From Escherichia coli (GTDB lineage: Bacteria > Pseudomonadota > Gammaproteobacteria > Enterobacterales > Enterobacteriaceae): a stretch of 64,000 nucleotides of DNA. Of this stretch, positions 15,115 through 56,099 are shown one piece after another (positions within the stretch are counted from its first letter, which is position 1; each line of letters begins with the position of its first letter). The stretch lies in assembly GCF_050920415.1 (NCBI RefSeq), contig NZ_CP169309.1. One strand, given 5' to 3'. Below the pieces are notes generated by a model, which worked only from the letters and a program-made list of their open reading frames with translations, had not been told where the DNA came from and did not search any database. Both the position numbers and the translations under genes were made by a program.

Positions 15115-15300
<186 letters not shown>

Positions 15301-18957: not shown

Positions 18958-19051
18958 AAAAAAAAACCGGATGCGAGGCATCCGGTTGAAATAGGGGTAA
19001 ACAGACATTCAGAAATGAATGACGGTAATAAATAAAGTTAATGATGATAGC
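18958..19051 (-). ncRNA. micF: micF antisense sRNA
   Basis: Reverse complement matches the micF sequence as I recall it (GCTATCATCATTAACTTT...CCGGATGCCTCGCATCCGGTTTTTTTT); divergent from ompC. Confidence 0.8.
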
Positions 19052-19370
19052 GGGAGATATTCTAGTTGCGAGTGAAGGTTTTGTTTTGACATTCAGTGCT
19101 GTCAAATACTTAAGAATAAGTTATTGATTTTAACCTTGAATTATTATTGCTTGATGTTAGGTGCTTATTTCGCCATTCCGCAATAATCTTAAAAAGTTCC
19201 CTTGTATTTACATTCTGAAACATCTATAGCGATAAATGAAACATCTTAAAAGTTTTAGTATCATATTCGTGTTGGATTATTCTGCATTTTTGGGGAGAAT
19301 GGACTTGCCGACTGATTAATGAGGGTTAATCAGTATGCAGTGGCATAAAAAAGCAAATAAAGGCATATAA

Positions 19371-27034: not shown

Positions 27035-27280
27035 CCACATCCGGCATGTTATGCCGGATGTGGCGTATGCTGATAAGACGCGCCAGCGTCGCATCAGTCA
27101 ACCGGCTTGGGCGTTAGATGTCGGATGCGGCGTGACCGCCTTATCCGACCTACGGGGTGGAGCACTTCACAGCGGTGTAGGCCTGATAAGACGCGCCAGC
27201 GTCGCATCAGGCAACCGGCTCGGGCGTTGGATGTCGGATGCGGCGTGACCGCCTTATCCGACCTACGGGGTGCCGCACTT
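27035..27280. repeat. REP/BIME cluster between convergent mqo and eco
   Basis: Two ~100-bp near-identical units (ctgataagacgcgccagcgtcgcatcag...gatgtcggatgcggcgtgaccgccttatccgacctacggggtg). Confidence 0.65.
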
Positions 27281-45470: not shown

Positions 45471-45493
45471 TGGGATTTTTGGTCGCACGAGAG
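45471..45493. repeat. Distal att direct repeat of the proL island
   Basis: tgggatttttggtcgcacgagag resembles tgggcgatttggtcggcacgagag at the tRNA 3' end (56281..56304). Confidence 0.55.
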
Positions 45494-45660
45494 TAGTTTA
45501 ATTGAGTGTATAACTAAATGATTTTAAATAATATTCTTTATTCAACTTTTAAATCGTATAACCAAACGTATAACTAAAATAATTTGCTGAAAAAGTGTAC
45601 AATTTCAGCAATAATTGCCCTAGCGACTATCATCCTGCTCCCCGGATTTTTTCCGGTTAA

Positions 45661-45897
45661 ATGTTAATCAGGCTGCTGGGCTTTGCCTGTTCGGTAGGTG
45701 TAATGATTATCGTAATACTTTTCCCCCAATGGGGTAAAAGCATCAACCGTAACGGAAGTCGTTATGGTTGCCTTGATGATCTGCGTGGTCATTATGACCA
45801 TTCAGCCAATGACCTTAATCAGAGCTTTTCGCTAAAAATGACGTTGGCCACTCGTCCGAAAAGCACAAAATCCCATCGATTTTTAATTAACGGTTAA
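45661..45897 (+). CDS. Hypothetical small membrane protein (78 aa)
   Basis: ORF with hydrophobic N-terminal segment (LLGFACSVGVMIIVILF); no convincing RBS. Confidence 0.25.
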   Translation: MLIRLLGFACSVGVMIIVILFPQWGKSINRNGSRYGCLDDLRGHYDHSANDLNQSFSLKMTLATRPKSTKSHRFLING

Positions 45898-46035
45898 ACC
45901 GTCTTTTTGTCACGTCGTGTCACTGGTTGTCACTCTCCGTCACGATCTCCGATAGCCTGGCTGCAAATTAAACTACGAAAATTTCGTAGTTCTGACTTCT
46001 TTCAGATAGTCGGTTGCCTGGTTACACGAAAAAAA

Positions 46036-46407
46036 TTACTTCCTGCGTTTATCCCGCTTTGTATGTCCGTGCTGAATGCCCCGCAGTGGATCTTCTTTTT
46101 TCAGGTCGATCCCCATGTCCGTTAGTGTTTTTGTGGCGGCGGTTCTTATGGCACAAATCAGGTCTCTTTCCGGTTCCCGGGTTATGGTTGCCTTCCGGAT
46201 ACATGCCGTTCGTCGTTCCGTTACATACTGACGCGCTTCATCACTTGCCGCCTGTTTCAGTAACTCACCCCAGCGATTAGCCGCCCGTCGCCATAAACCT
46301 TTCGCTTCCAGTTCTTCCGCTTTGTCATCATGCACCATAAGCATAATCCCATTGATACCTGTTAAATCTGAATGGTTGGTTTCCGTTCTTTTGATAATTT
46401 CCCTCAT
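46036..46407 (-). CDS. Hypothetical protein, possibly PerC-family transcriptional activator-like
   Basis: 123-aa ORF with LEAKGLWRRAANRWGELL motif reminiscent of PerC-type activators; start may be an internal Met. Confidence 0.4.
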   Translation of the reverse strand: MREIIKRTETNHSDLTGINGIMLMVHDDKAEELEAKGLWRRAANRWGELLKQAASDEARQYVTERRTACIRKATITREPERDLICAIRTAATKTLTDMGIDLKKEDPLRGIQHGHTKRDKRRK

Positions 46408-46450
46408 AGCTTATTGTATGACAGTACTGTCCCACAATAAGGAATCACAC

Positions 46451-46750
46451 ATGAGAATGACCAGGCACAAAAAACAGATTCTTGAACTTTACAAACCTGA
46501 GTATCGCGATTGGGTGCGGGTGGAGGCCGGAGATCCGCCTTTTGATGTTCGTGGTGTGACAGTGCTGCTCTATGGTTCCGAATATCAGCGATATCACATA
46601 GAGGCAACCCGACGAACGTTAAACGCTATGGTAAATGATGGGATCCTGTACCGCGTGAAAGTGCGCGAACCCCGCTTTGATGTGCGTATCGGTAGCGATG
46701 GCGCTCACTGTACGGTAATCCGGTACGGGCTGGGTAAATCAGATGATTAA
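46451..46750 (+). CDS. Hypothetical protein (99 aa)
   Basis: Start chosen at ATG 46451 preceded by AAGGA RBS (ORF track extends upstream to 46322); no recognisable domain. Confidence 0.45.
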   Translation: MRMTRHKKQILELYKPEYRDWVRVEAGDPPFDVRGVTVLLYGSEYQRYHIEATRRTLNAMVNDGILYRVKVREPRFDVRIGSDGAHCTVIRYGLGKSDD

Positions 46751-46873
46751 ATCACCAGAATGTAAATTTACATTCTGCCAGCCACCAGCTACAGAACGCA
46801 AATTTGCACTTTGCTGAAATATTAACGGGTTAGGCCAGAGTGCAAATTTGCATTATGCTTTAACTTCAGCAAG

Positions 46874-47155
46874 TTACCGCCGTAACCGCTCCGGCTTCTT
46901 CCACTGGTACGTTATTTTGGCTTTTTCCCTGTACGTCTGTATCCGGCGACGGTAGGCCAGCATTTCAAGAACGCGGATCCGTATGTCGCGCATATCCGCA
47001 TCATTAAGCTGGATACCATCACGGTGCATCACCTCAGCAACCACACGAACATAATTTTCTGCGGTCACGCTGTCCGGCTGCGTGGCCTGTTCGTCAGCCT
47101 GCTGGTTGATTCCGGCGACGCGGCGGATTAATCGCAGTAGTTCGGTTTCTGTCAT
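46874..47155 (-). CDS. Hypothetical protein (93 aa)
   Basis: ORF just downstream of the capsid-gene terminator; no recognisable domain. Confidence 0.4.
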   Translation of the reverse strand: MTETELLRLIRRVAGINQQADEQATQPDSVTAENYVRVVAEVMHRDGIQLNDADMRDIRIRVLEMLAYRRRIQTYREKAKITYQWKKPERLRR

Positions 47156-47315
47156 TGTGCCCCCATCGCGCTGGTTAAGAAAACAAGCTCAGATTTTTTG
47201 TAAAGAATCTGTCACGCTAAAAGATGTCGAACAAAAAACAACCTTCTCCATCATCTTTTTTGCATCGATTACATTAAAAACAACAGGTTACATACATGAT
47301 GATGATGACGATAAA

Positions 47316-47412
47316 ATCACAAAAATGCGCTTTTTTCCGCGCCCGCCCGCCCCGTGTTCATACCCACCCCACCAGGAGGACCCGCAAAAAAGGCGGCTGG
47401 TGCCGCCTTGTT
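47316..47412 (-). repeat. Repeated non-coding element, copy A: terminator hairpin plus GC box
   Basis: Shares a ~38-bp near-identical core (aaaaatgcgc(t/c)tttttccgcgcccgcccgccccgtg) and similar downstream architecture with copy B. Confidence 0.6.
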
Positions 47413-47413
47413 G

Positions 47414-49303
47414 TCATAGTGAATCGGTACCGCCTGATTTGACCATACCGCGATAATCCAGAGCGGCCACACCAGCATCAATACGGACTTTCCAGGCCAC
47501 ACCGTCAACGATGAAACCTTCCTGCTGTTCAAGGTAAGGCTCGTCATTGCCATCAAGATAAGCCACCTCGATTGTGTCCGTTCCCTGTGCGGAAAGCATG
47601 TACCATTGTTTTTCGCTGATATCATCAAGGCGGGGATCGACGATAATATCCAGTAGTTTGTGATACGGGTTAAAGATCCCGCTGTTTTTATCTGCCCCGA
47701 AAGGTGCGGTTGAGTTAATCATCTGCAACGCGCGATCTTCCAGTGCTGCCGGAACTAAAAGGAATTTAGGCGCAATATTCAGCACTTCGCCATTTTTGTC
47801 CTTCTGTGTGCGCATCAGGTGACGTGCTGCACTAAGTCCCGGTGTTGTCAGTCCTGCTTCAATCAGGTTGCTGTGTTTTTTGTCAAACAGCGCTATTCCA
47901 TCAGAAAGTTTTACGTTGCCTGTAAGCACCAGATTAACCAGATTTCCCACCGTTCTTGATGCTGCACGGCCCATAGCCATTGGCACCGTTGATAACTGAT
48001 CAAGGTCATCATTGATTATCGCCTGGCGGGTAATGCTGAAAATATTCCCGTAAGTAGCCAGCGCGATGGGTTCACCGCGATCGCTGGTGGTGATGTATTT
48101 ATATTCTGCCCCTTCCGGCACTTTGTTTAACGTAGAGAAACCATTCAGACCAACGCGGCGGGCTTCACGAAAGTTTGAAAGGGAACCTTTTTTCGTCCAC
48201 TGGCGGAATGTTTCGCCGCTGTGCTCCCAGCCTGCAAGCACTGATTTTTCAGCACCACCAGCAAGGATATCGGTAAAATCGCTGCTGCTGTGGTTGAATG
48301 CCGCGTTTACTATCTGCGAGCGTGTTCCGTAGCTGCCCGTGCTTATACCACGATGGGTTAATGATGCCTGTGCCATATCGAAAAGGCTCATCATGGCGTA
48401 AGGATTACCGCGTTCGGCCCGTTCGTGACCAAGACGCGCATTAAGCCCCTGGCGCATTGCATCGCCGGTTATGTTGCCGTTATCCGTGTACGCGTAGTAA
48501 AGATTTGCGGGGGTGGTTTTATTTGTTGGCGTTGATTCTTTACCCATAGCGAGTAAAAGGCGTTCGCGTGCATTCTCAACGCTACATTCTGAATCAGCAA
48601 GACAACTTATAGCCAGGTCGTTATATCTTCCGTTGAACGTGCCAAACAATTCACGGATGCCGTTAAGTCGTTCCTGTTCGCCACTGCCAGTTTTCTGGCT
48701 GATCATGCTTTTAATTTTTTCCGGCATATTTGAAAAATCTCCGATTCGTTTTGATTCAATTCGGGCCATTGCTGTAATCGCGGGTATAACCTCATCTGCG
48801 AAGCCGTTAGCCTTACACTCATTGCCATCCATCCAGGTTTCCGCCTCCATCATGGCGGTGATTTCCTGTTTGCTCCTGCCCGTTCTTCCGGCGTAGGTTT
48901 CAGCCATCGTGTCGCCCAGCTTGTCCATCAGGTCAGCAAAGCGGCGAACGTCGCCCGACACTCCGGCAGTAACACCACGGGGGGCATGTATCATCATCAT
49001 TGCGTTTTCAGGCATAACGATGTGATCGCCACACATGGCAATAAACGAGGCCATAGAAGCCGCCATGCCTTCAATGTGTACAATTTTCTTTGCCGGATGA
49101 TTTTTCAGGGCGTTATAGATAGCCAGCCCTTCAAAGATGTCGCCACCAGGTGAATGGATGCGAAGATGGATTTCAGACGCATTACCACACGCGTTGATCT
49201 CGTCAGTAAGTGCCGATGCTTTTACACCGTACCCGCCGATCTCGTCATAAATGCGCACATAGACAACATCTGCCATAGCCTTAATGGAAAACCATGTTTT
49301 CAT
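47414..49303 (-). CDS. Prohead protease (ClpP/S14-like) fused to a capsid-like C-terminal domain
   Basis: 629-aa ORF: N-terminal ~180 aa has ClpP-like motifs (GMAASMAS, MMIHAP); C-terminal ~350 aa reads as an HK97-fold major capsid protein, assigned by impression only. Confidence 0.75.
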   Translation of the reverse strand: MKTWFSIKAMADVVYVRIYDEIGGYGVKASALTDEINACGNASEIHLRIHSPGGDIFEGLAIYNALKNHPAKKIVHIEGMAASMASFIAMCGDHIVMPENAMMMIHAPRGVTAGVSGDVRRFADLMDKLGDTMAETYAGRTGRSKQEITAMMEAETWMDGNECKANGFADEVIPAITAMARIESKRIGDFSNMPEKIKSMISQKTGSGEQERLNGIRELFGTFNGRYNDLAISCLADSECSVENARERLLLAMGKESTPTNKTTPANLYYAYTDNGNITGDAMRQGLNARLGHERAERGNPYAMMSLFDMAQASLTHRGISTGSYGTRSQIVNAAFNHSSSDFTDILAGGAEKSVLAGWEHSGETFRQWTKKGSLSNFREARRVGLNGFSTLNKVPEGAEYKYITTSDRGEPIALATYGNIFSITRQAIINDDLDQLSTVPMAMGRAASRTVGNLVNLVLTGNVKLSDGIALFDKKHSNLIEAGLTTPGLSAARHLMRTQKDKNGEVLNIAPKFLLVPAALEDRALQMINSTAPFGADKNSGIFNPYHKLLDIIVDPRLDDISEKQWYMLSAQGTDTIEVAYLDGNDEPYLEQQEGFIVDGVAWKVRIDAGVAALDYRGMVKSGGTDSL

Positions 49304-49494
49304 AGCCAGGCTCCTAACGTTGCCCTGTACCAGTATTCAACCGCGCTGCGTGTGATTTGTCCTTTCGTGGGTACCGGCATACCCGGGTGATTGTCTTTGA
49401 TGAACTGCTGATAGCGTTCGATCTTCTCCATAGTTCCGGCGTCTATGTGTACCGTGGCACTTTTATCCGGCTTTCTGGTGTTGTTCTCTGGCAT
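49300..49494 (-). CDS. Hypothetical small protein coupled to the protease-capsid gene
   Basis: ORF 49300..49527; internal ATG at 49494 has a strong GGAGG RBS; stop overlaps capsid ATG (ATGA). Confidence 0.45.
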   Translation of the reverse strand: MPENNTRKPDKSATVHIDAGTMEKIERYQQFIKDNHPGMPVPTKGQITRSAVEYWYRATLGAWL

Positions 49495-49854
49495 AAATCC
49501 GCCTCCGTTTTGATTAACGGGCATCATTATTGATCGATAAAAGTAATAGATAAATCATTTTCTACCTGAAAATTAGATTATATTTTTTCTGATTATTCTC
49601 AGAGAGGCAAAGCCATTGACGCATTTTTGCTATTGAAGCAATATTAAGACTCGTCATCCTGGCGATAAAAACTCCTTTGTCGTGTAAAAGCGCCTCCGGT
49701 AACAGCAATCGAGGGCGCTTTTTTTTGCGCCTGTTTTTTTGTAAATGTTTTCGGGAACGCTCCAGTGATGAACAAAAAACAACCTGATTCGACACTAAAA
49801 ATTTTTATTCCTCAATATATCAATAACTTATAGTGGTGGTGATGGTGCCATAAA

Positions 49855-49952
49855 AATCAAAAAATGCGCCTTTTTCCGCGCCCGCCCGCCCCGTGGACAG
49901 GCCCACCAAGCCAGGAGTACCTACAAAAAAGCCGGATTGCTCCGGCTGTGTG
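49855..49952 (-). repeat. Repeated non-coding element, copy B
   Basis: See copy A; hairpin gccggattgctccggc plus GC box. Confidence 0.6.
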
Positions 49953-49965
49953 CTCACTTCTTCGG

Positions 49966-50217
49966 TTATTCTCCAGCGCTTTTAACGTTGATGGTTGTAA
50001 CCTGTTCCGCTTCGGCAATCTCCCATTCTGTCAGCGTGGCAAAGTTTGCCGCCGCTGTGGTCATGAATGCGCTTATCAGGTCGGGATGTGCTTTCGCGTA
50101 TCCTTCCCCCGTGTTGCGGTCGATGATTTTTATCGCCACTCTCAGCCAGTGCTCTGTAAGGTCAATGGCGCGGTTATGCTGCTTCTTCTGATTATTAAGT
50201 TTTCCTGATGTGCGCAT
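49966..50217 (-). CDS. Hypothetical protein (83 aa)
   Basis: ORF between the iteron array and repeat copy B; G-rich RBS-like sequence upstream. Confidence 0.4.
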   Translation of the reverse strand: MRTSGKLNNQKKQHNRAIDLTEHWLRVAIKIIDRNTGEGYAKAHPDLISAFMTTAAANFATLTEWEIAEAEQVTTINVKSAGE

Positions 50218-50249
50218 TTTTATTTTTACCCCCTCGTTTAAAAAGTTTT

Positions 50250-50500
50250 GAGTTGTGCCTCCCCTTGTCTACCTTATCTACCTTACTGGCCACCATGCCA
50301 GTAATGGCGCGGCTTTCAGTGGGGTAGAGTGCTTTTATCCACTATCTACCCCGTATCTACCTCCCTGTCTGATTCAGGTAAAATCAGGTAGAGAGGGTAG
50401 ATAGTAGGTAGACAGTAAAAAAAGGCTGTCTACCCAAGTTAATGTACTGAATTAAATGTATTTTTCTTTACTCAGGTAGACAGGGTAGACAGCCATTGCA
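50250..50500. repeat. Iteron array, putative replication origin
   Basis: At least 11 copies of GGTAGA/TCTACC in both orientations within ~250 bp, just 3' of the replication gene. Confidence 0.55.
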
Positions 50501-50505
50501 ACAAA

Positions 50506-52254
50506 TTATAAAAACGCGTCGCAATCGTCTGTTGTTATTGCGTTAGTCTGCGTTACTCCTTTAACTTTCCGCGTAATATATTCATGTCCGTAAACTTTCG
50601 CGGCTGGCTTCATAGCCTTGCCAAAGTCATTTACGTTTAGCGGTTTGCTCCTGCCTGCGTACGCCATAAACGCCAGATAGACGCGGTAAAGGCTGTTTCT
50701 GGTCGTGTACTTCACTGAATCGCCACCGCCGCCCATCATCAGGCCGCGTGCTTCCTCCAGAAAATTCAGGAACTGGCAAAACTCAATAACCGGATCCGTC
50801 TGTTGCTTTATTGCCAGTGCTTCATCACCGTCACGCTGTTCAATGAGTAAAGCCCGTGCCTTTTCAGGGTCGGCAAAGTTCGCCAGCAAGCGGCGGATAA
50901 TGACAGGGATTTCAGCCGCGATCTTTTCCGGTAGCTCCCTGTCTTTTTCTGCCTCGCTTACGATGTTATCGAACCGGAATATCACCCGACGACGTGCCAC
51001 ACCTCCGGCCCGTTCGGTGAATATCATCGGATTGTTATTGGTTGCCAGCACCACCGCCCTGATTACCGCCGTAAAACGCTTTTCATATTTCGGGTTAATT
51101 TCCACGGGGTCGCCGCCCGTGATTTTCTTGATGCCCGTTCCTTCGCCTGTATATTTCTGCTGGTCTGCCAGGACGATAAGACGACTCCCGACAACCTGCG
51201 CACGCCCACCAGCATCATCAAGCGATGTCATTTCAGCGCTTACCGTGTTTTGTTTCCCTGCCAGAAGGCTGGCTATGTGTGTGAATGTACTTTTACCGCT
51301 CCCGCCGTCTCCGGTGGCCTCAATAAACATCTGCCAGTCGTACCGGTTCGCCATAATCATGTACAGCGCGGCACATATACGCATCATCTTGCTCGGGTCT
51401 TTTCCGGCTGCGTGCTCAAGCCATTTATGAAAGTTTGGCGCGTTATCGCGGATGTTCTCCCCGGGTGCTGGTGGCGTGTACTCAATGCCGTTGTGCGTGG
51501 TGATCCAGTTCTCCGGCGTGTGCGGGGAAAATTCCCCCGTTTTCAGGTCAAGCGCACCATTGGCGAACGGCAGCAAATCGCCGGACGGCTCGCCCATTGG
51601 TTCGGCAATAACTTTTAACGCTTCCACGGCGTTATTGATTACGCGCTTGCTGAAAGTGGCCCTGTGCTCTGAATAGATAGCCACCATTTCGCGGCTCAGC
51701 TCCATTGTGCTGACCGGACACCATACCCCGCCGCGCCATACGTGAACGATTTCACTTTCAGGATGCACACAAACGCCATCAAAGCGCTCGGCAAGCAGCT
51801 GCGCGCGCTCACTGTCTGCCATTTGTGCCAGTTGCGTATTTTTCTGCTCCGGCATGGTAAGCCCTGCGGCAATATTTTCACGCTCAGCATTCAGATAGCG
51901 CCGCCAGTTTTCACACTTCTGGACGTGCATTCCTTCGGGGTAAAAATTTGCGTCCTGAATATCTGCCGCCGCCAGCTTCTGACCAATCTTTTTGGTCTCC
52001 ACCAAATCCAGTTCTCCGGCCTGGTACAGCCTTACGCGCTTTTTCCCATCCGGAACAATTTTCAGTGCATCAAGTTCGGCAAGCTGATTTGGCCCAAGCC
52101 ACACAGGCGGCACATTATCGCCGGATGCGGGGCCATCCTGCTCCTGCCATTGTTTCGCGTGCGACCAGGCATCACTACCCGCGAAAATAATTACCTCTGT
52201 GTCTTTGTGTTTTATTCCGCGTGGCTGTTTTTTTACGTTCGGTGCCAGTTTCAT
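50506..52254 (-). CDS. Replication protein: NTPase/helicase-like with Walker A motif (primase-helicase-like)
   Basis: 582-aa ORF with Walker A GDGGSGKST and a putative Walker B (LIVLAD); SF3/D5/P4-alpha-type assignment is by impression. Confidence 0.75.
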   Translation of the reverse strand: MKLAPNVKKQPRGIKHKDTEVIIFAGSDAWSHAKQWQEQDGPASGDNVPPVWLGPNQLAELDALKIVPDGKKRVRLYQAGELDLVETKKIGQKLAAADIQDANFYPEGMHVQKCENWRRYLNAERENIAAGLTMPEQKNTQLAQMADSERAQLLAERFDGVCVHPESEIVHVWRGGVWCPVSTMELSREMVAIYSEHRATFSKRVINNAVEALKVIAEPMGEPSGDLLPFANGALDLKTGEFSPHTPENWITTHNGIEYTPPAPGENIRDNAPNFHKWLEHAAGKDPSKMMRICAALYMIMANRYDWQMFIEATGDGGSGKSTFTHIASLLAGKQNTVSAEMTSLDDAGGRAQVVGSRLIVLADQQKYTGEGTGIKKITGGDPVEINPKYEKRFTAVIRAVVLATNNNPMIFTERAGGVARRRVIFRFDNIVSEAEKDRELPEKIAAEIPVIIRRLLANFADPEKARALLIEQRDGDEALAIKQQTDPVIEFCQFLNFLEEARGLMMGGGGDSVKYTTRNSLYRVYLAFMAYAGRSKPLNVNDFGKAMKPAAKVYGHEYITRKVKGVTQTNAITTDDCDAFL

Positions 52255-52550
52255 TTTTTACCCCTGAATACGTTAAGCATCTTTTTTATTTCCTGAATAT
52301 TGGCGCGTGCTTTCTCCCTGCTGGTTGGTTTACTGCGGGGCGCTGCCTGTACCAGAGAAAAATCACGCCGAAACTGATAAACAGGCATCACGCAATCATA
52401 TTCGTAGCCTTCACGACGGTAGGTGATGCGCCGTTCTGCCACGCCTTTAATCGTTACCATGCCGCCATATTTATCGCGGTAAATATCGCCGCGCGTAAAT
52501 TTAGGGTGAGTGTTGCCACTAGCAGTTAAGCCAGAAATTTTCTTTTTCAT
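52251..52550 (-). CDS. Hypothetical protein (99 aa), coupled to the replication gene
   Basis: Stop overlaps replication-gene start; basic protein. Confidence 0.45.
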   Translation of the reverse strand: MKKKISGLTASGNTHPKFTRGDIYRDKYGGMVTIKGVAERRITYRREGYEYDCVMPVYQFRRDFSLVQAAPRSKPTSREKARANIQEIKKMLNVFRGKK

Positions 52551-52566
52551 GGTTTTTATTCCGCGT

Positions 52567-52782
52567 TTATTTTTTATCGTGAATTTCGATCGCTTTATTT
52601 AATTCGGTGATTACCGTATCGAGTAATGAAATAAACGCACCAGCAAGATTAGATTCACGTTCACCTTCCGGCGCATCACTTAAACCATCAAGCCAGATAA
52701 GCAATATTTGCCGCAAGCATTCACTGTTAGTCAGTGCGTTTTCTGCATGGCTCATTAATTTAAAATAACGGTCATCATGCAT
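52567..52782 (-). CDS. Hypothetical protein (~71 aa)
   Basis: ORF 52567..52827; internal ATG at 52782 has AAGGGG RBS and sits 2 nt after the upstream gene's stop. Confidence 0.4.
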   Translation of the reverse strand: MHDDRYFKLMSHAENALTNSECLRQILLIWLDGLSDAPEGERESNLAGAFISLLDTVITELNKAIEIHDKK

Positions 52783-53011
52783 GGTGCGCCCCTTGAATAT
52801 CTGCGGTAAGAATTTTGCCTGCCTCATTCAGCGCCATATCAGCACTAAGTTGCATAACCGCCAGCGAATGAGGAACGAAAGCCCCTGCATATTCTGTTTC
52901 ACTGGTGGCGTGCTTATGCGCCATGTCAGCAATAACAGAAATATCAATAAGCGCATCCATCAGCGTTTTGATGGCTTCGGCGGCTGCGTCCGGACGGGGG
53001 TTATTGCACAT
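52775..53011 (-). CDS. Hypothetical protein (78 aa), first gene of the replication operon
   Basis: Strong GGAGG RBS 6-7 nt upstream of ATG; faces the divergent operator region. Confidence 0.45.
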   Translation of the reverse strand: MCNNPRPDAAAEAIKTLMDALIDISVIADMAHKHATSETEYAGAFVPHSLAVMQLSADMALNEAGKILTADIQGAHHA

Positions 53012-53289
53012 GGCGCACCTCCTGACGAATACGGGCGGCGAATACCATCACGCAGCCAGCCGGGGATTGCTGGCGGGCTTCCTGTTCGCTGGTGGCCTCG
53101 ATGGTAATCACGCGCGGTTGTGCCGTGCTCAGGGCGATAAAACGCCAGATGTATTTATTCAGGTTGTGCGAATCCCGCCCTTGCGGGTGTGTGGTATGAT
53201 TTCTCATAGCTGCCTCGATACTCTTTCTATCGTTGGTGGTTAGACGCCCTGCATGTGTGCCACCACTGCGGGGCGTTGCGTTTTTTGAT

Positions 53290-53347
53290 GCACACGTGTT
53301 AAGGTGTACACCTACAAAGCAAAAACATAACGCCATAGGTGTACACA
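53290..53347. promoter_or_regulatory. Operator cluster in the divergent control region
   Basis: Palindromes ACACGTGT (53293), GGTGTACACC (53303..53312) and AGGTGTACAC (53338..53346, overlapping the RBS of the plus-strand gene). Confidence 0.5.
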
Positions 53348-53541
53348 TGTCAACAGTTATTAAGCGCGATAAAAAACAAAAAGGCACAGGAAAGACCCCA
53401 CCGTTCCATATGCGTATAGTTCCTGAATTGAAGGAGCAGTTTGATAACGAAGCCAGTAACGATGGAGTAAGTCTTGCCAACTGGCTTAAAGAGTTGGGGC
53501 GCGCCGAACTAAAGCGACGCGGCATTGAACCTAAAGGCTGA
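53347..53541 (+). CDS. Small DNA-binding regulator, putative ribbon-helix-helix (64 aa)
   Basis: ATG with AGGTG RBS; HMRIVPELKEQF strand-like then helical DGVSLANWLKELGRAEL suggests RHH (assigned by impression); divergent from the replication operon. Confidence 0.45.
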   Translation: MSTVIKRDKKQKGTGKTPPFHMRIVPELKEQFDNEASNDGVSLANWLKELGRAELKRRGIEPKG

Positions 53542-53544
53542 TGT

Positions 53545-53664
53545 ATGACCGATAACAAACTTTCTCTAACAGAGAATAAACCATCAGGCTTCTTACCAAG
53601 AAAAATCCTTGATGAGATCAAACGCCGCCAGCGTAAAAAATCCAAAGGAGCAGACACGGAATAG
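53545..53664 (+). CDS. Hypothetical basic peptide (39 aa)
   Basis: Short ORF 3 nt after the upstream stop; below the ORF-track length cutoff. Confidence 0.2.
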   Translation: MTDNKLSLTENKPSGFLPRKILDEIKRRQRKKSKGADTE

Positions 53665-53667
53665 CTT

Positions 53668-53832
53668 ATGCAACAAATACCATACTGGCTTGGCTCTCTG
53701 TTTGTATTTGCATTTCTCATGAAATATTGCATTAGCAATGAACTTGTCGGTAATGAAAGTGCATGCGCGAGCGCTGAAAAAAATATTCCACTTCTCGTAT
53801 ATGAAAACGAAAGCCCTGTGAACCGCAATTGA
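53668..53832 (+). CDS. Hypothetical small membrane peptide (54 aa)
   Basis: ATG 3 nt after the upstream stop; hydrophobic N-terminus (YWLGSLFVFAFLM) then polar tail. Confidence 0.25.
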   Translation: MQQIPYWLGSLFVFAFLMKYCISNELVGNESACASAEKNIPLLVYENESPVNRN

Positions 53833-54108
53833 GCGAAATTTAATGAATTCACTCTTTGCCCACCAGCCGCAAATGTGGCATTGTTGGCGATGCTCATGCG
53901 TTGGGGATAACGTGTAGCTTGTGTCGAAGGGCCATCGTGACAGGTGGCCTTTTCTTTACCTGTTATCTGGCAATTGTGGCGCTTCGTCACACGGTTGATA
54001 TAATTCCCCTGCACTGATCCATTTTTTTCGCAGCAGGTTAATTGTTCGCAAGGGCGCTCCGGCAACGGGGCGCTTTTTGTTATGTTCATCACGTTACGCC
54101 TCACACCA

Positions 54109-54315
54109 TTACGCAGCCGTTCCGCGCGCTTCTTCCTCGCGCTCTTTCAGCCAGGCCAGCACTTCATCTTCATACCAGCCAACACGACGCAGACCGATTT
54201 TGAAGCCTTTCGGAAATTTTCCGGCGTTGATCATGTCCTGTAGCGAACTGTCTGCCTTGATGCGCAGAATATTTTTTACTTCCTGACGGGTAAGAATTTT
54301 TCTGATTGTTTCCAC
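54109..54315 (-). CDS. alpA: AlpA-family transcriptional regulator/excisionase-like protein (GTG start)
   Basis: 68-aa ORF with MerR-like HTH (LTRQEVKNILRIKADSSLQDMINAGKFPKGFKIG...); typical neighbour of P4-type integrases. Confidence 0.8.
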   Translation of the reverse strand: METIRKILTRQEVKNILRIKADSSLQDMINAGKFPKGFKIGLRRVGWYEDEVLAWLKEREEEARGTAA

Positions 54316-54384
54316 TATGTTTTACCTCGTTAATCCGGCGTATTCCGGTGATAAATACGGTAAAACAGGGCAGGGCGGGAAAAA

Positions 54385-54420
54385 CAGTACCCACCGTTTT
54401 AAAACGGTACCCACTGTTTT
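54385..54420. promoter_or_regulatory. Putative operator upstream of alpA
   Basis: acaGTACCCACcgtttt aaaacgGTACCCACtgtttt: motif repeated 20 bp apart around a central palindrome. Confidence 0.4.
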
Positions 54421-54485
54421 TTATCTTATTGATTACGCTTTTCTTTCTGCAAAAAAATAGCGACCGCAAGGGGCCGCTATTGTGA

Positions 54486-54728
54486 TTACCGTTTCCACTT
54501 CTTAGGTCGCCCACCGCATTTAAGGCTGGTGGGCCTCAGCACCTTGTCGATGCTTTCAGCCAGATTTTTCGATGCGCCACGCGAGCGCAAAAAACTGACT
54601 ACCTCGTGTTTTGTGGGGGCAGTTGATTTGTCTTCCGGATCGTACGTTGACCAGAATTCACGATTTGCCATTAAGGCCAACTGAAGGCCTTCACCATAGG
54701 CAGGGGATACCTTTTCATTGAAAAACAC
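54486..54728 (-). CDS. Hypothetical protein (80 aa) between integrase and alpA
   Basis: ORF followed by a hairpin/T-run near 54455..54480. Confidence 0.3.
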   Translation of the reverse strand: MFFNEKVSPAYGEGLQLALMANREFWSTYDPEDKSTAPTKHEVVSFLRSRGASKNLAESIDKVLRPTSLKCGGRPKKWKR

Positions 54729-54829
54729 TCGGATAACTCCTTGAATTTCAAGAGTCGGGTCTCTCTGTATATGGTGATTATACGATGGTTTAGCATGGTT
54801 TGCATCGCTTTTACTGGTTTTTTGTACAG

Positions 54830-56071
54830 TTATACGGCACGGATACCCCTTTTACCACTGGCTATGGTCACTCCGGTTGCTGCGGCCTCTACAAATTCCC
54901 CCCACCAGCGCATAAGCACCACGCGCTTTTCCAGGTAGTTACTTCGGTTATATGCTCGCCTTACCTCGTTCGTGTCCACGTGTGCGAGTGCGGCCTCGAT
55001 TACGTCCGGCTCGAATCCTTCCTCGTTCGCTGCTGTGCTGAATATGGCGCGTAATCCATGAGACACCAGCACGCCAGCGAATCCCATTCGCCGCAATGCT
55101 GCGTTGGCGGTCTGGCTGTTCATAGGCTGCCGTGGGTCTTTCAGGCTAGGGAAAACGTGCTCGCGGTGGTGGCTGATTGGCTTCATGGCCTCCAGTACCG
55201 CCATAGCCTGACTACAAAGCGGGATAACGTGATCACGCCGCATCTTCATGCGTCCGGCGGGGATCGTCCATTGTTGCGCGTCCATGTCGATTTCTTCCCA
55301 GCGTGCTGACGATGCTTCAACCGGACGGGTTACAGTCAGTAGCTGCCATTCAATCAGTAATCTGGTCTGCCGTTCTGTTGCTGATACGGATAAAGCCTGC
55401 ATAAGCTCCGGCAACTGTTCGGGGCGGATTGTTGGCATATGTTTTTTTACAGGGGAGGGGAACGCCTTACGCACATTCATAGCCGGATTGGCATCAATCA
55501 GCCCACTGTTGGCGGCGTAATCCATTACCTCATTAACGCGCTGTAAAACCCGCTTGAGTGTTTCCAGGTTGCCGCGCTCCTTGATGGGTGTAAGCACCTC
55601 AACGAACCTTCGGGCAGTGAGGGTATCTATTGGCGTGTTGCCGATGAACGGGAATACATATTTATCCAGCGAACGCCAGATGTCTTTAATCGTGTTGGGG
55701 GCCAGATTCTGGCTGATTTTCACCTGGTACCATGCCGCCGCCACATTTTCGAACGTGTTCCCTTGTCTTCGGGCCTCTGCCTCTCGTTTTTTCTTCTCAT
55801 GGTCCTGCGGGTCAGTTCCGGCACTGATTAACGTCCTGTACTCGCTACGGCGTTTTCTGGCATCAGCCAGGGAAACATCTTCAAGAGATCCAAAACTCAG
55901 CAATATTCTTTTTTTGTCCGATGGTCGGTAGTAGGAAAATCGCCAGAGTTTTGATCCGGACGGTTTTACCAGGAGAAAAAGCCCACCGCCGTCCTGTAGG
56001 GTGTACTCCTTTTGCGCTGGTCTGGCTGCTTTGATCTGCACTGTGGTTAATGGGGGTGTTTTTCTCGCCAT
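54830..56071 (-). CDS. int: Tyrosine site-specific integrase (P4-type)
   Basis: ORF 54830..56089; start placed at MARKTPPLTT; N-terminal arm-binding-like domain and catalytic HGLR...LAH...Y. Confidence 0.9.
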   Translation of the reverse strand: MARKTPPLTTVQIKAARPAQKEYTLQDGGGLFLLVKPSGSKLWRFSYYRPSDKKRILLSFGSLEDVSLADARKRRSEYRTLISAGTDPQDHEKKKREAEARRQGNTFENVAAAWYQVKISQNLAPNTIKDIWRSLDKYVFPFIGNTPIDTLTARRFVEVLTPIKERGNLETLKRVLQRVNEVMDYAANSGLIDANPAMNVRKAFPSPVKKHMPTIRPEQLPELMQALSVSATERQTRLLIEWQLLTVTRPVEASSARWEEIDMDAQQWTIPAGRMKMRRDHVIPLCSQAMAVLEAMKPISHHREHVFPSLKDPRQPMNSQTANAALRRMGFAGVLVSHGLRAIFSTAANEEGFEPDVIEAALAHVDTNEVRRAYNRSNYLEKRVVLMRWWGEFVEAAATGVTIASGKRGIRAV

Positions 56072-56099
56072 ATGTCTATGATTCCACACGAAAAAACAG

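Follow-up and report, generated by a model that had tools for sequence, protein, structure and literature searches.

A large proportion of Enterobacterales genomes harbour Gram-negative PICIs or related satellites. The best comparisons for the locus described here come from four immunity or maintenance systems. The immI region of phage P22 contains two ribbon-helix-helix (RHH) repressors, Arc and Mnt, palindromic operators between the opposed and overlapping promoters P_ant and P_mnt, and the antisense RNA sar; one of the promoters serves a gene that is detrimental to lysogeny, and the cis-antisense RNA, about 70-80 nt long, covers the ribosome-binding site (RBS) of the operon. In the immI region of phages P1 and P7 (c4 - icd - ant), the first cistron is of the Icd type, the genes downstream need its translation, and a small RNA blocks its start. 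C4 RNA is of the same sense, is processed and acts in trans. The Rfam family C4 is used for detecting such RNAs (PMC10111431), and the immunity region of P4 consists of a vis/alpA homologue, eta with the nested kil, the internal promoter PLE and the CI RNA (PMC10111431). In Gram-positive PICIs (SaPIs), the master repressors Stl and Rpr are encoded divergently from the excision/replication module and keep the island quiescent (PMC6092414). Gram-negative PICIs have been described as activated by AlpA and without a known repressor, and it was stated to be unclear whether they possess a maintenance repressor at all (PMC6092414).

Here we analyse an island in a 64-kb stretch of Escherichia coli DNA (the window), and suggest, with a probability of about 0.62, that the region between its alpA gene and its replication operon is the immunity (maintenance) switch of a PICI/P4-type island, in which an RHH repressor acting on two operators is combined with an antisense-RNA layer. 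The region resembles P22 immI in having an RHH repressor with Arc as its best structural match, palindromic operators at opposed promoters and a predicted cis-antisense RNA. It differs in having one repressor instead of two, a 12-bp palindrome present twice where the Arc operator measures 21 bp, an operon of Icd-like and satellite replication genes instead of an antirepressor operon, and a candidate antisense RNA that would target the first cistron. As in P1 and P7, an Icd-type gene is the first translated cistron and a small RNA, here a candidate, lies at its translation start; in contrast to those phages, the island has no C4 or IsrK match, its candidate RNA would be read from the other strand, and it has a predicted protein repressor. 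The likeness to P4 is one of gene order: an alpA homologue is followed directly by a long open reading frame (ORF) that remains open, has a predicted promoter inside it and a short killing or division-inhibiting product nested at its end, and is followed by the primase gene. However, this long ORF shows no sequence similarity to P4 and is only a positional analogue of eta with the nested kil; in place of the CI RNA, the island is predicted to use a protein repressor, operators and an opposite-strand RNA within the long ORF, and it lacks annotated psu, delta and sid. The repressor gene is divergent from the replication module, as is that of Stl, but Stl is a large HTH protein relieved by helper-phage proteins, whereas the island protein is an RHH protein of 64 residues with no obvious partner-binding domain. 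Finally, its C-terminal RHH module resembles that of the HicB antitoxins (Pfam PF05534), without the N-terminal HicB fold, a HicA toxin gene or a conserved downstream partner. The coordinates of all features are given in Table 1.

Table 1. Features of the island and of its immunity region (positions are those of the window; +, plus strand; -, minus strand;., no strand assigned)
Feature	Position	Strand	Basis or description
Island	~45480-56304		Integrase adjoins tRNA-Pro; imperfect direct repeat at ends
68-aa Icd-like gene, first cistron of leftward operon	53001-53207	-	NCBIfam NF033153 (E 1.5e-19); PHROG 6196 (E 2.3e-46); PGAP
367-codon stop-free frame	53001-54104	-	Lies opposite the entire plus-strand module; its last part is the Icd-like protein
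Putative antisense-RNA promoter	53192-53200	+	Extended -10 TGgTATGAT inside Icd-like codons 3-5; proposed from sequence
Candidate cis-antisense RNA, ~80 nt	53207-53287	+	Two hairpins (SL1 and SL2), then T-run; covariation and strand bias
SL1	53207-53242	+	Spans complement of Icd-like start codon and RBS
SL2 and T-run	53243-53277 (SL2); 53281-53286 (T-run)	+	Second stem-loop of candidate antisense RNA
Rightward promoter P_R (inferred)	53276-53305	+	-35 TTGCGT 53276-53281; 18-bp spacer; extended -10 TGtTAAGGT 53297-53305
Operator O1	53302-53313	.	Perfect 12-bp palindrome AGGTGTACACCT; overlaps -10/+1 of rightward promoter
Leftward promoter P_L (predicted)	53324-53353	-	-35 TTGACA 53353-53348; 18-bp spacer with O2; -10 TATGTT 53329-53324
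Operator O2	53336-53346	.	TAGGTGTACAC; in leftward-promoter spacer; ends right before ATG 53347
64-aa RHH (Arc-like) regulator gene	53347-53541	+	PHROG 228, part of Pfam HicB, AF2, Foldseek
39-aa ORF	53545-53664	+	Open frame; probably not an independent gene
54-aa ORF	53668-53832	+	Open frame with hydrophobic N-terminus; orphan, probably not a gene
Terminator-like hairpin	53924-53955	+	3' of plus-strand unit; GGCCATCGTGACAGGTGGCC then TTTTCT; weak terminator-type Rfam alignment
Strong intrinsic-terminator-like site	54050-54077	+	12-bp stem and T-run; closes plus-strand unit before alpA
AlpA-family HTH regulator/excisionase gene	54109-54315	-	PHROG 66 and 2790; PGAP annotation; upstream of long ORF

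Island context and leftward operon

The window carries a PICI/P4-type satellite island of about 10.8 kb, integrated at tRNA-Pro (proL), with the copies of its imperfect att repeat at 45480 and 56290. Between yejO and the tRNA gene lie genes for an integrase, AlpA, the Icd-like protein, DUF4222, a primase, a prohead protease/capsid fusion and PerC. An integrase at an att site, an AlpA-type HTH protein, DUF4222 together with a primase, and a single protease/capsid fusion constitute the gene content of a PICI, for which we applied the Gram-negative definition of a size of about 10-20 kb with an incomplete set of virion genes. The annotation of the identical RefSeq island lists no psu, delta or sid, and no relaxase, oriT or partition ATPase is annotated in the island.

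The first gene of the leftward operon belongs to NF033153 (host cell division inhibitor Icd-like) and is also present in the PGAP annotation of an identical genome. It has a Shine-Dalgarno sequence, GAGG, 7 nt upstream of its start, and its 3' end overlaps the next gene (ATG 53011) by 11 nt. The order of the operon is the Icd-like gene, small overlapping genes, DUF4222 and primase, and its cistrons overlap by 4-11 nt. A previous reading from the sequence alone (the sequence-only reading) began this operon at the strong GGAGG of the gene starting at 53011. That RBS (53019-53023, minus strand) does serve the gene, but it lies inside the Icd-like gene, and the gene it serves is the second cistron. 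The same reading assigned some 335 bp to the intergenic region; because the Icd-like gene fills the left part of this interval, the control region is reduced to the 139 bp (53208-53346) between the Icd-like gene and the RHH gene.

The RHH regulator and its operators

The 64-aa protein is a ribbon-helix-helix (Arc-like) protein according to sequence families and structure prediction. It consists of a basic N-terminal tail (residues 1-21), a beta-strand at about residues 19-25 (FHMRIVP) and two helices (26-38 and 43-57). It matches the Arc-like repressors of PHROG 228 (E 7.8e-6), and its match to Pfam HicB (PF05534) covers only the RHH DNA-binding part (residues 20-48, i-E 0.012). The AF2 model of the monomer (pLDDT 78 overall, 83-92 across residues 21-60) shows two helices after an extended segment, and the top Foldseek matches of this model are all RHH proteins, led by P22 Arc (probability 1.0, TM 0.85 on the target), to which the sequence identity is a marginal 25% across 44-48 aligned columns. 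The sequence-only reading had proposed an RHH-like gene at this place, with a fold prediction as its check; PHROG, Pfam, AF2 and Foldseek agree that the gene is real and that it has this fold. An NCBIfam match to the conjugal regulator TraJ is weak (E 9.6e-4, well under the cut-off).

Differences from locus L004 at the three codon positions of the gene (8, 3 and 24) show a third-position bias, which extends to the N-terminal tail. In 23 loci, synonymous changes make up the largest fraction in the sense frame (0.515 versus 0.418), which contains no stops, against seven in the antisense frame; in these comparisons, purifying selection on the regulator ORF is confined to the sense frame. At least 214 of 5426 complete E. 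coli genomes, O157:H7 among them, carry the RHH module, and the gene has few matches in the phage collection. In sister islands, YlcI/YnfO-type modules occupy the equivalent position and are interchangeable with the RHH module; a literature search on YlcI/YnfO returned nothing relevant.

Exact copies of AGGTGTACAC occur in the 64-kb window only at the O1 and O2 sites, and the repeated palindrome noticed from the sequence is real, including its overlap with the regulator's RBS: O2 is at the same time the Shine-Dalgarno region (AGGTG) of the RHH gene. The two operators are 35 bp apart from centre to centre, which is a non-integral number of helical turns, and the position of O1 is conserved in more than 20 loci. 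The 23 Enterobacterales loci compared represent about 12 genera; in each locus, O1 and O2 have a common core, and this core follows the residue after the conserved Phe of the RHH beta-strand, in a covariation whose statistics overstate independence since the loci are phylogenetically related. Where this residue is H the core is GTGTACAC; for R it is GTGACCAC or GTGGTCAC, for K GTGGCCAC, for Q GTACGTAC or GTGTGTAC, for S GTATGGAC and for N GTATAGAC. Because both operator copies covary with one beta-strand residue, there is strong evidence that the RHH protein and O1/O2 form a cognate repressor-operator pair, and the covariation suggests base-specific recognition of the operator by residues of the N-terminal beta-strand. 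The fold evidence and this covariation across genera uphold the core of the original proposal, a divergent switch in which a small RHH regulator acts on repeated palindromes. A further palindrome listed with them, ACACGTGT at 53292-53299, was rejected as an operator: it occurs once where about one occurrence is expected by chance, its palindromy is not kept in relatives, and its right half is part of the conserved extended -10 element.

Predicted promoters and the candidate antisense RNA

P_L is the sole sigma-70-like site found between 52700 and 54400, and would start transcription at about 53317. Its -35 hexamer, TTGACA, is the reverse complement of codons 1-3 of the RHH gene and is invariant in 20/20 loci, with TAnnnT 17-19 bp further on. 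P_R would start at about 53312, facing P_L and some 5 bp from its start; within its -10 region TA..GT is conserved, and the preceding TG is present in most loci.

The hairpin and T-run recognized earlier are real, consisting of a stem-loop followed by a T-run (SL2 in Table 1); what had been missed is that there are two hairpins and on which strand the structure lies. The candidate RNA has a minimum free energy of -35.4 kcal/mol (z -4.68, 0/200 shuffles). With a hand-defined structure and a tighter alignment, which is consistent only for SL1 and the inner half of SL2, 87.6% of the paired cells in 23 loci can pair, compared with 28-57% when the structure is slid along the alignment; in 11 pairs both partners have changed, and these values were attained by 0/500 shuffles. 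As the loci are related by descent, these covariation figures too overstate independence. RNAalifold run on the raw MAFFT alignment gave no consensus structure, because the loops were misaligned. The ratio of G·U to A·C in SL1 is 40:12 when read on the plus strand, and at one particular pair 21/23 loci have G·U; these plus-strand G·U pairs place the RNA structure on the plus strand. The plus strand also folds better than the minus strand in 20/20 and 21/21 loci in two comparisons (mean -23.0 versus -15.8 kcal/mol). The hairpins are thus likely to represent an antisense RNA of about 80 nt, transcribed from the plus strand over the start site of the Icd-like gene, a cis-encoded kind of RNA exemplified by P22 sar and IS10 RNA-OUT.

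In about 16 of 21 loci SL2 has a T-run behind it; since it is weak or absent in about 4-5 of the 21 and in the YlcI-type modules, SL2 may not always terminate transcription. Sister islands with a YlcI/YnfO-type regulator and palindromes of their own have a hairpin with plus-strand G·U pairs at the equivalent place. For the putative promoter of the RNA no convincing -35 element was found. Most loci retain its TAnnnT at a distance of 4 or 10 nt ahead of the minus-strand start codon, though the residues encoded there differ; part of this conservation could be at the protein level, because the site lies in coding sequence.

The long minus-strand frame, alternative readings and the proposed switch

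Opposite the whole plus-strand module runs a long stop-free frame, which may start at GTG 54104, 4 nt after the alpA stop codon, or at ATG 54089, with GAGG 9 nt upstream. In its 234 codons outside the RHH gene there are no stops, compared with about 10 expected (P<5e-5); in this frame, real genes here have 3.2 antisense stops per 100 codons, and antisense stops are depleted inside RHH genes. Loci L003 and L026 have no stop in the corresponding gap, and L027 and L030 almost none; about half of the loci have an interrupted antisense frame. The first 280 residues of the frame match no Pfam or PHROG family, PHROGs matching the Icd-like end only, and amino-acid constraint was detected neither in these residues nor, by the codon-position test, in the right flank of the frame. 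A tblastn search of the phage collection with the long ORF did not have P4 among its matches. Tentatively, as a reading that we rate as less likely than not, the repressor gene (of the RHH type here and of the YlcI/YnfO type in sister islands), the operators and the antisense RNA may be embedded on the opposite strand of a long translated ORF in which translation itself, and not the amino-acid sequence, is selected, with ribosomes coupled to alpA preventing termination and allowing read-through. Leftward transcription induced by a helper would in this way cross the immunity module and reach the replication genes, in the manner of P4 eta/kil. If so, a protein repressor would be encoded antisense within a translated ORF, a true antisense overlapping gene pair unlike P4, and the 39- and 54-aa ORFs would be by-products of the long minus-strand frame.

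The two ORFs behind the regulator were originally seen as a small membrane effector, of the toxin or exclusion kind, joined to a repressor. Read as a type II toxin-antitoxin or exclusion module, the region would have the RHH protein as antitoxin and autorepressor and the 54-aa peptide, with or without the 39-aa one, as toxin or exclusion effector. The source (NCBI) name of the homologues, 'toxin-antitoxin system HicB family antitoxin', the weak Pfam HicB match, the tight spacing of the three ORFs in one frame, the hydrophobic N-terminus of the 54-aa ORF and the small membrane-like ORFs 3' of the regulator in some relatives are all in keeping with this. However, the HicB match is limited to the DNA-binding part, the N-terminal (partial RNase H-like) toxin-binding domain of HicB is absent from the 64-aa protein in Pfam and NCBIfam searches, and family searches found no hicA beside its gene. 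Both open frames exist, but they have no signatures of genes: there is no third-position bias in either, in contrast to the regulator (the 54-aa ORF has 3, 5 and 6, and 10, 7 and 10, differences by codon position), and neither has a match in NCBIfam, PHROGs or PADLOC, as is also true of the cargo ORFs of related loci in PADLOC. The cassette is found in 6/5426 complete E. coli genomes, a homologue search of 5.8 billion proteins with the 54-aa ORF returned its own cluster only, and in most of 20 related loci nothing is conserved 3' of the regulator, where the content is variable or absent. The last 24 residues of the 39-aa ORF match the C-terminal tail of YlcI/YnfO-family regulators (BLASTP, 54% identity over 24 aa, E 4e-7), and the ORF shares an identical 20-nt stretch (53614-53633) with YlcI/YnfO-type genes; it looks like a fragment of such a gene. 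Most likely, the 39- and 54-aa ORFs are not functional genes, and, because they lack a coding signature, are rare in E. coli and are absent from most related loci, we consider a toxin-antitoxin module very improbable. The RHH protein might instead be an activator, or might assist as an accessory DNA-binding protein in, for instance, excision, partition or transfer, like TraJ, ParG or Omega, rather than repress the replication operon. RHH proteins have many roles, and the weak TraJ match points the same way, but both binding sites coincide exactly with promoter elements (the spacer of a consensus promoter and a -10/+1 region) and the annotated island has none of the transfer or partition functions sought, so that this role appears improbable.

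Two other readings concern the strand. The hairpins could form the leader of the leftward, minus-strand transcript, as a same-sense immunity RNA or attenuator like P4 CI/seqA or P1 C4. In P4 and P1, the RNAs upstream of kil/eta or icd are processed and of the same sense, and the minus-strand leader of the window does fold below its shuffles (z -2.31); C4 and IsrK (Rfam) have moreover been reported in several Gram-negative PICIs (PMC10111431). Against this, Rfam searches at the hairpins gave no match, including C4 and IsrK, either at the gathering threshold in the window or at E<=10 in 52900-54200 on both strands, the G·U pairs of the plus strand would become C·A mismatches on the minus strand, and the plus strand folds better in every locus; a same-sense leader is accordingly rated as unlikely. 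It has also to be considered that the long minus-strand ORF is the real gene and the 64-aa ORF its antisense by-product, since the minus frame is significantly stop-free and PGAP, in O157:H7, leaves the RHH ORF unannotated and calls the antisense ORF (a 247-aa protein) instead. The 64-aa ORF, however, has independent family and fold support, its sense frame is the one with the higher synonymous fraction and without stops, its beta-strand covaries with the operators, and the opposing frame is interrupted in about half of the loci and has no family match over its first 280 residues, which makes a by-product extremely improbable.

We therefore return to the immunity switch as the preferred reading. 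Because O2 lies in the P_L spacer and O1 over the -10/+1 region of P_R, binding of the RHH protein to O2 would silence the Icd-like gene and the DUF4222/primase replication operon, a toxic and replicative unit, and binding to O1 would make the repressor autoregulatory. With their starts about 5 bp apart and directed at one another, the two promoters are expected to be mutually exclusive. The plus-strand RNA would be initiated inside the Icd-like gene, SL1 being complementary to the start codon and RBS and SL2 acting as terminator, and would block translation of the first cistron and, through coupling, of the cistrons behind it. We infer the binding, the direction of regulation and the transcript ends in this scheme; repression might be lifted by a helper-phage product or by read-through driven from alpA.

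The RHH protein is thus a candidate for the repressor so far unidentified in Gram-negative PICIs, and the module offers for these islands a concrete repressor/operator pair with predicted promoters. The link between the operator core and a single residue of the beta-strand could account for the division of co-resident islands into immunity groups, and is directly usable for RHH engineering. A conserved antisense RNA that is absent from Rfam, together with a stop-free ORF on the opposite strand, suggests a layered switch, which would join the logic of P22 immI, P1 immI and P4 eta/kil.

The island and its switch

The region around the 64-aa ribbon-helix-helix (RHH) gene is, on well-supported grounds, the immunity switch of a satellite island, composed of an RHH repressor, two cognate operators (O1 and O2) and face-to-face predicted promoters, and a conserved candidate antisense RNA is, with moderate support, a further part of it. 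It resembles, as a variant, the known kinds P22 immI, P1 immI and P4 eta/kil. The finding of the sequence-only reading is real and exceeds what was seen then, but half of its interpretation, the effector module, fails.

The window is chromosomal E. coli DNA that includes micF, yejM and tRNA-Pro(GGG) (56290-56366), and an island of ~10.8 kb lies between yejO and the tRNA gene. All core genes of the island are on the minus strand (Table), and the protease/capsid fusion is its sole virion gene. The layout is that of Gram-negative satellites of the phage-inducible chromosomal island (PICI) type, with an integration zone containing AlpA, a dynamic zone, a replication zone and a late zone (PMC10111431; PMC11773190). 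A PerC regulator is likewise present in EcCIMP1-type PICIs, which repress the LEE island (PMC11773190). At 45480 the tRNA-Pro 3' end recurs imperfectly (TGGTCG-CACGAGAG) and marks the far island end; the copies at the two ends are direct repeats that do not match perfectly, TGGTCGCACGAGAG (45480-45493) versus TGGTCGGCACGAGAG (56290-56304). Because these copies differ by one base, the att site is suggested to be old or decaying. Strain OkiPb01679 holds an identical island copy. Rfam also recognized REP-type naRNA4 elements at 15221-15297 and 27068-27263 and MicF at 18959-19052, which belong to the ordinary chromosome and have no connection with the switch.

Coordinates of features of the island and its switch, and of related loci and sister islands (L numbers)
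Feature	Coordinates	Strand	Remarks
Integrase	54830-56089	-	then a small ORF
AlpA-type HTH gene	54109-54315	-	
54-aa ORF	53668-53832	+	
39-aa ORF	53545-53664	+	
RHH regulator gene	53347-53541	+	64 aa
O2	53336-53346		palindrome TAGGTGTACAC
O1	53302-53313		palindrome AGGTGTACACCT
P_L (predicted)	53353-53348 (-35)	-	TTGACA, 18-bp spacer containing O2, -10 TATGTT
P_R (predicted)	53297-53305 (extended -10)	+	TTGCGT, 18 bp, conserved TGtTAAGGT; O1 overlaps -10
Icd-like gene	53001-53207	-	68 aa; NF033153, E 1.5e-19
Two small overlapping genes, then DUF4222		-	between Icd-like gene and primase
Primase	50506-52254	-	
ClpP-like prohead protease/major-capsid fusion	47414-49303	-	629 aa
PerC-family regulator	~46036-46407	-	island gene
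YlcI/YnfO regulator modules	L003 3300-3470; L026 2200-2366; L028 2500-2665; L029 2500-2668		
Cargo after regulator	L002 3650-4180; L004 6196-6348; L006 602-832; L013 5215-6402; L018 5235-6741; L031 1827-2552; L032 1796-2152		
Long open frame	L003 3271-4465; L026 2167-3028; L027 1619-3070; L030 1501-2244		

Probable repressor, operators and predicted facing promoters

The 64-aa protein had been called RHH-like, and its fold agrees: the AlphaFold model (25 homologues) has an extended segment and then two helices (26-38 and 43-57), and the PDB structures closest to it are P22 Arc and further RHH proteins. The protein has a PHROG 228 match ('Arc-like repressor', E 7.8e-6), and a weak Pfam match to the RHH part of HicB is why its homologues are named 'HicB family antitoxin'. 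Differences between loci are concentrated at third codon positions (e.g. [8,3,24]), likewise in the basic N-terminal tail, and in 23 loci the sense frame has the top synonymous fraction among all six frames and 0 stops. At ≥80% query coverage the module occurs in at least 214 of 5426 complete E. coli genomes, including O157:H7, where the RHH gene is unannotated.

The repeated palindrome reported near the regulator is genuine, and exact AGGTGTACAC has no copy in the 64 kb beyond O1 and O2. However, the other palindrome claimed, ACACGTGT, has 1 copy versus one expected by chance and is unconserved. The gap of ~335 bp described earlier overlooked the Icd-like gene; with that gene counted, 139 bp remain non-coding, and the GGAGG near 53020, although present, serves as RBS for the second cistron.

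Comparison of 20 loci in Enterobacterales (about 12 genera), plus E. coli variants, revealed that the layout upstream of the RHH gene is kept almost gap-free. O1 and O2 carry one common core per locus, and this core varies between loci, following the beta-strand residue directly C-terminal to the conserved Phe of the RHH protein: FH with GTGTACAC, FR with GTGACCAC / GTGGTCAC, FK with GTGGCCAC, FQ with GTACGTAC or GTGTGTAC, FS with GTATGGAC, and FN with GTATAGAC. Judged from these alignments, such tracking is the signature expected of a cognate RHH-operator pair.

The sole sigma-70-like site found in the region is P_L, the predicted leftward promoter. Its -35 is the reverse complement of RHH codons 1-3, and TTGACA is invariant in 20 of 20 loci, those with TTG or CTG start codons included, with TAnnnT 17-19 bp further. 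The inferred starts of P_R, the predicted promoter of the RHH gene (~53312, rightward), and of P_L (~53317, leftward) point at each other, so that the two promoters should be mutually exclusive. A near-consensus P_L in front of the Icd-like gene and replication operon would have to be repressed while the island is quiescent, for which O2 would be ideally positioned.

A candidate antisense RNA

The hairpin and T-run seen previously are confirmed at 53243-53277 and 53281-53286. The hairpin is the second (SL2) of two stem-loops that precede the T-run on the plus strand of 53207-53287 (81 nt; -35.4 kcal/mol, z -4.68), one structure accounting for 52% of the ensemble. In the first stem-loop (SL1), the segment complementary to the Icd-like RBS and start codon (UAGCUGCC) pairs with conserved GGUGGUUA, and the inner stem is CGAUA/UAUCG. 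In a 23-locus alignment, paired cells amount to 87.6%, versus 28-57% with partners slid; both sides have changed in 11 of 19 pairs, and 0 of 500 shuffles reached the observed values. On the plus strand SL1 has 40 G·U versus 12 A·C; one pair is G·U in 21 of 23 loci, and the mean fold is -23.0 kcal/mol compared with -15.8 on the minus strand, the plus strand being better in every locus. A TAnnnT preceding the minus-strand start codon by 4 or 10 nt is kept (TGgTATGAT, 53192-53200, in the window), the encoded residues differing. No -35 was found for the putative antisense-RNA promoter, the T-run after SL2 is poor in some loci, and Rfam gave no match for the hairpin RNA, C4 and IsrK included. Based on the fold, the pair covariation, the plus-strand G·U bias and the conserved TAnnnT, we propose a cis-antisense RNA of ~80 nt that covers the site where translation of the first leftward cistron begins. 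Such an RNA would block this start, and because the cistrons behind the Icd-like gene overlap by 4-11 nt, it should also depress the later ones.

Exchangeable modules and the opposite-strand frame

The two small ORFs after the regulator had been interpreted as completing a module of repressor plus small membrane effector. This reading, like a toxin/antitoxin one, is unsupported, because the 39/54-aa cassette occurs in only 6 of 5426 genomes, the 54-aa ORF has no relatives outside its own cluster, differences between variants are even over codon positions ([3,5,6], [10,7,10], [9,6,10]), family and defence searches of both ORFs gave no match, and most related loci have nothing conserved downstream of the regulator. 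The slot carries unrelated cargo across islands: several small membrane-like ORFs, proteins of 176, 242, 267 and 395 aa, and a SWIM zinc-finger protein. PADLOC matched 0 of 8 cargo ORFs (L002, L004, L006, L013, L018 and L028). The slot may be a hotspot for accessory or defence genes.

Recombination has made the region a mosaic. At its C-terminus, the 39-aa ORF matches the tail of YlcI/YnfO regulators over 24 residues, and an identical 20-nt stretch, GAGATCAAACGCCGCCAGCG (53614-53633, encoding EIKRRQR), is common to this ORF, its L027 homologue (2568) and the L003 YlcI-type regulator gene (3602), while L026 contains fused remnants of the RHH C-terminus and the 39-aa ORF family tail (2695-2745). 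Such short repeats shared among these genes look like recombination joints. In sister islands a YlcI/YnfO-family regulator (NF041551) takes the RHH gene's position, with its own distinct repeated palindromes (TGGATTCCA, GTGTTGAACAC or TGTATATACA) and a hairpin with plus-strand G·U pairs, again after shared GGTGGTTAG, exactly after which the break-point between the two module types lies. Since the window's SL2 sequence is also found in front of YlcI/YnfO regulators, the hairpin, the operators and the regulator are exchanged by recombination as independent modules.

One minus-strand frame is free of stops from 54104 to the end of the Icd-like gene at 53001 (367 codons), with starts at GTG 54104, 4 nt past the alpA stop, and at ATG 54089, with GAGG upstream. 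It runs antisense through terminators, both small ORFs, the RHH gene, the operators and the RNA. Outside the RHH gene it has 0 stops versus about 10 expected (P<5e-5); the equivalent antisense frame of the window's real genes has 3.2 per 100 codons. The alpA-to-Icd gap is wholly stop-free in two YlcI-type islands (398 and 287 codons), nearly so in two more, and broken where large cargo genes are inserted. Antisense stops are also depleted inside RHH genes, with none in 14 of 23 non-independent loci versus 6-7 expected. Before the Icd-like domain, the frame showed no amino-acid constraint and no family match, and no P4 similarity was found. PGAP makes 'incomplete Icd-like/Ash family' pseudogenes from pieces of it and, in O157:H7, calls it a 247-aa protein, leaving out the RHH gene. 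In Providencia (L004/L005, 5655-6431), a 258-aa minus-strand ORF overlaps the upstream AntA-family stop by 1 nt, and its end encloses the first leftward gene, so the nested long-ORF layout is found again in a second genus, behind another upstream gene.

The start of P4 eta is coupled to an alpA homologue, and eta holds a constitutive promoter and nested kil, its translation preventing termination (PMC10111431). The long frame is its positional equivalent, with an opposite-strand protein as the probable repressor here in place of the CI RNA of P4. The switch sits within an opposite-strand ORF that is kept open, and we hypothesize a P4 eta-like role for this ORF, which is possible but less likely than not. 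The existence of a maintenance repressor in Gram-negative PICIs has been called unclear (PMC6092414), and the RHH protein is a candidate for such a repressor.
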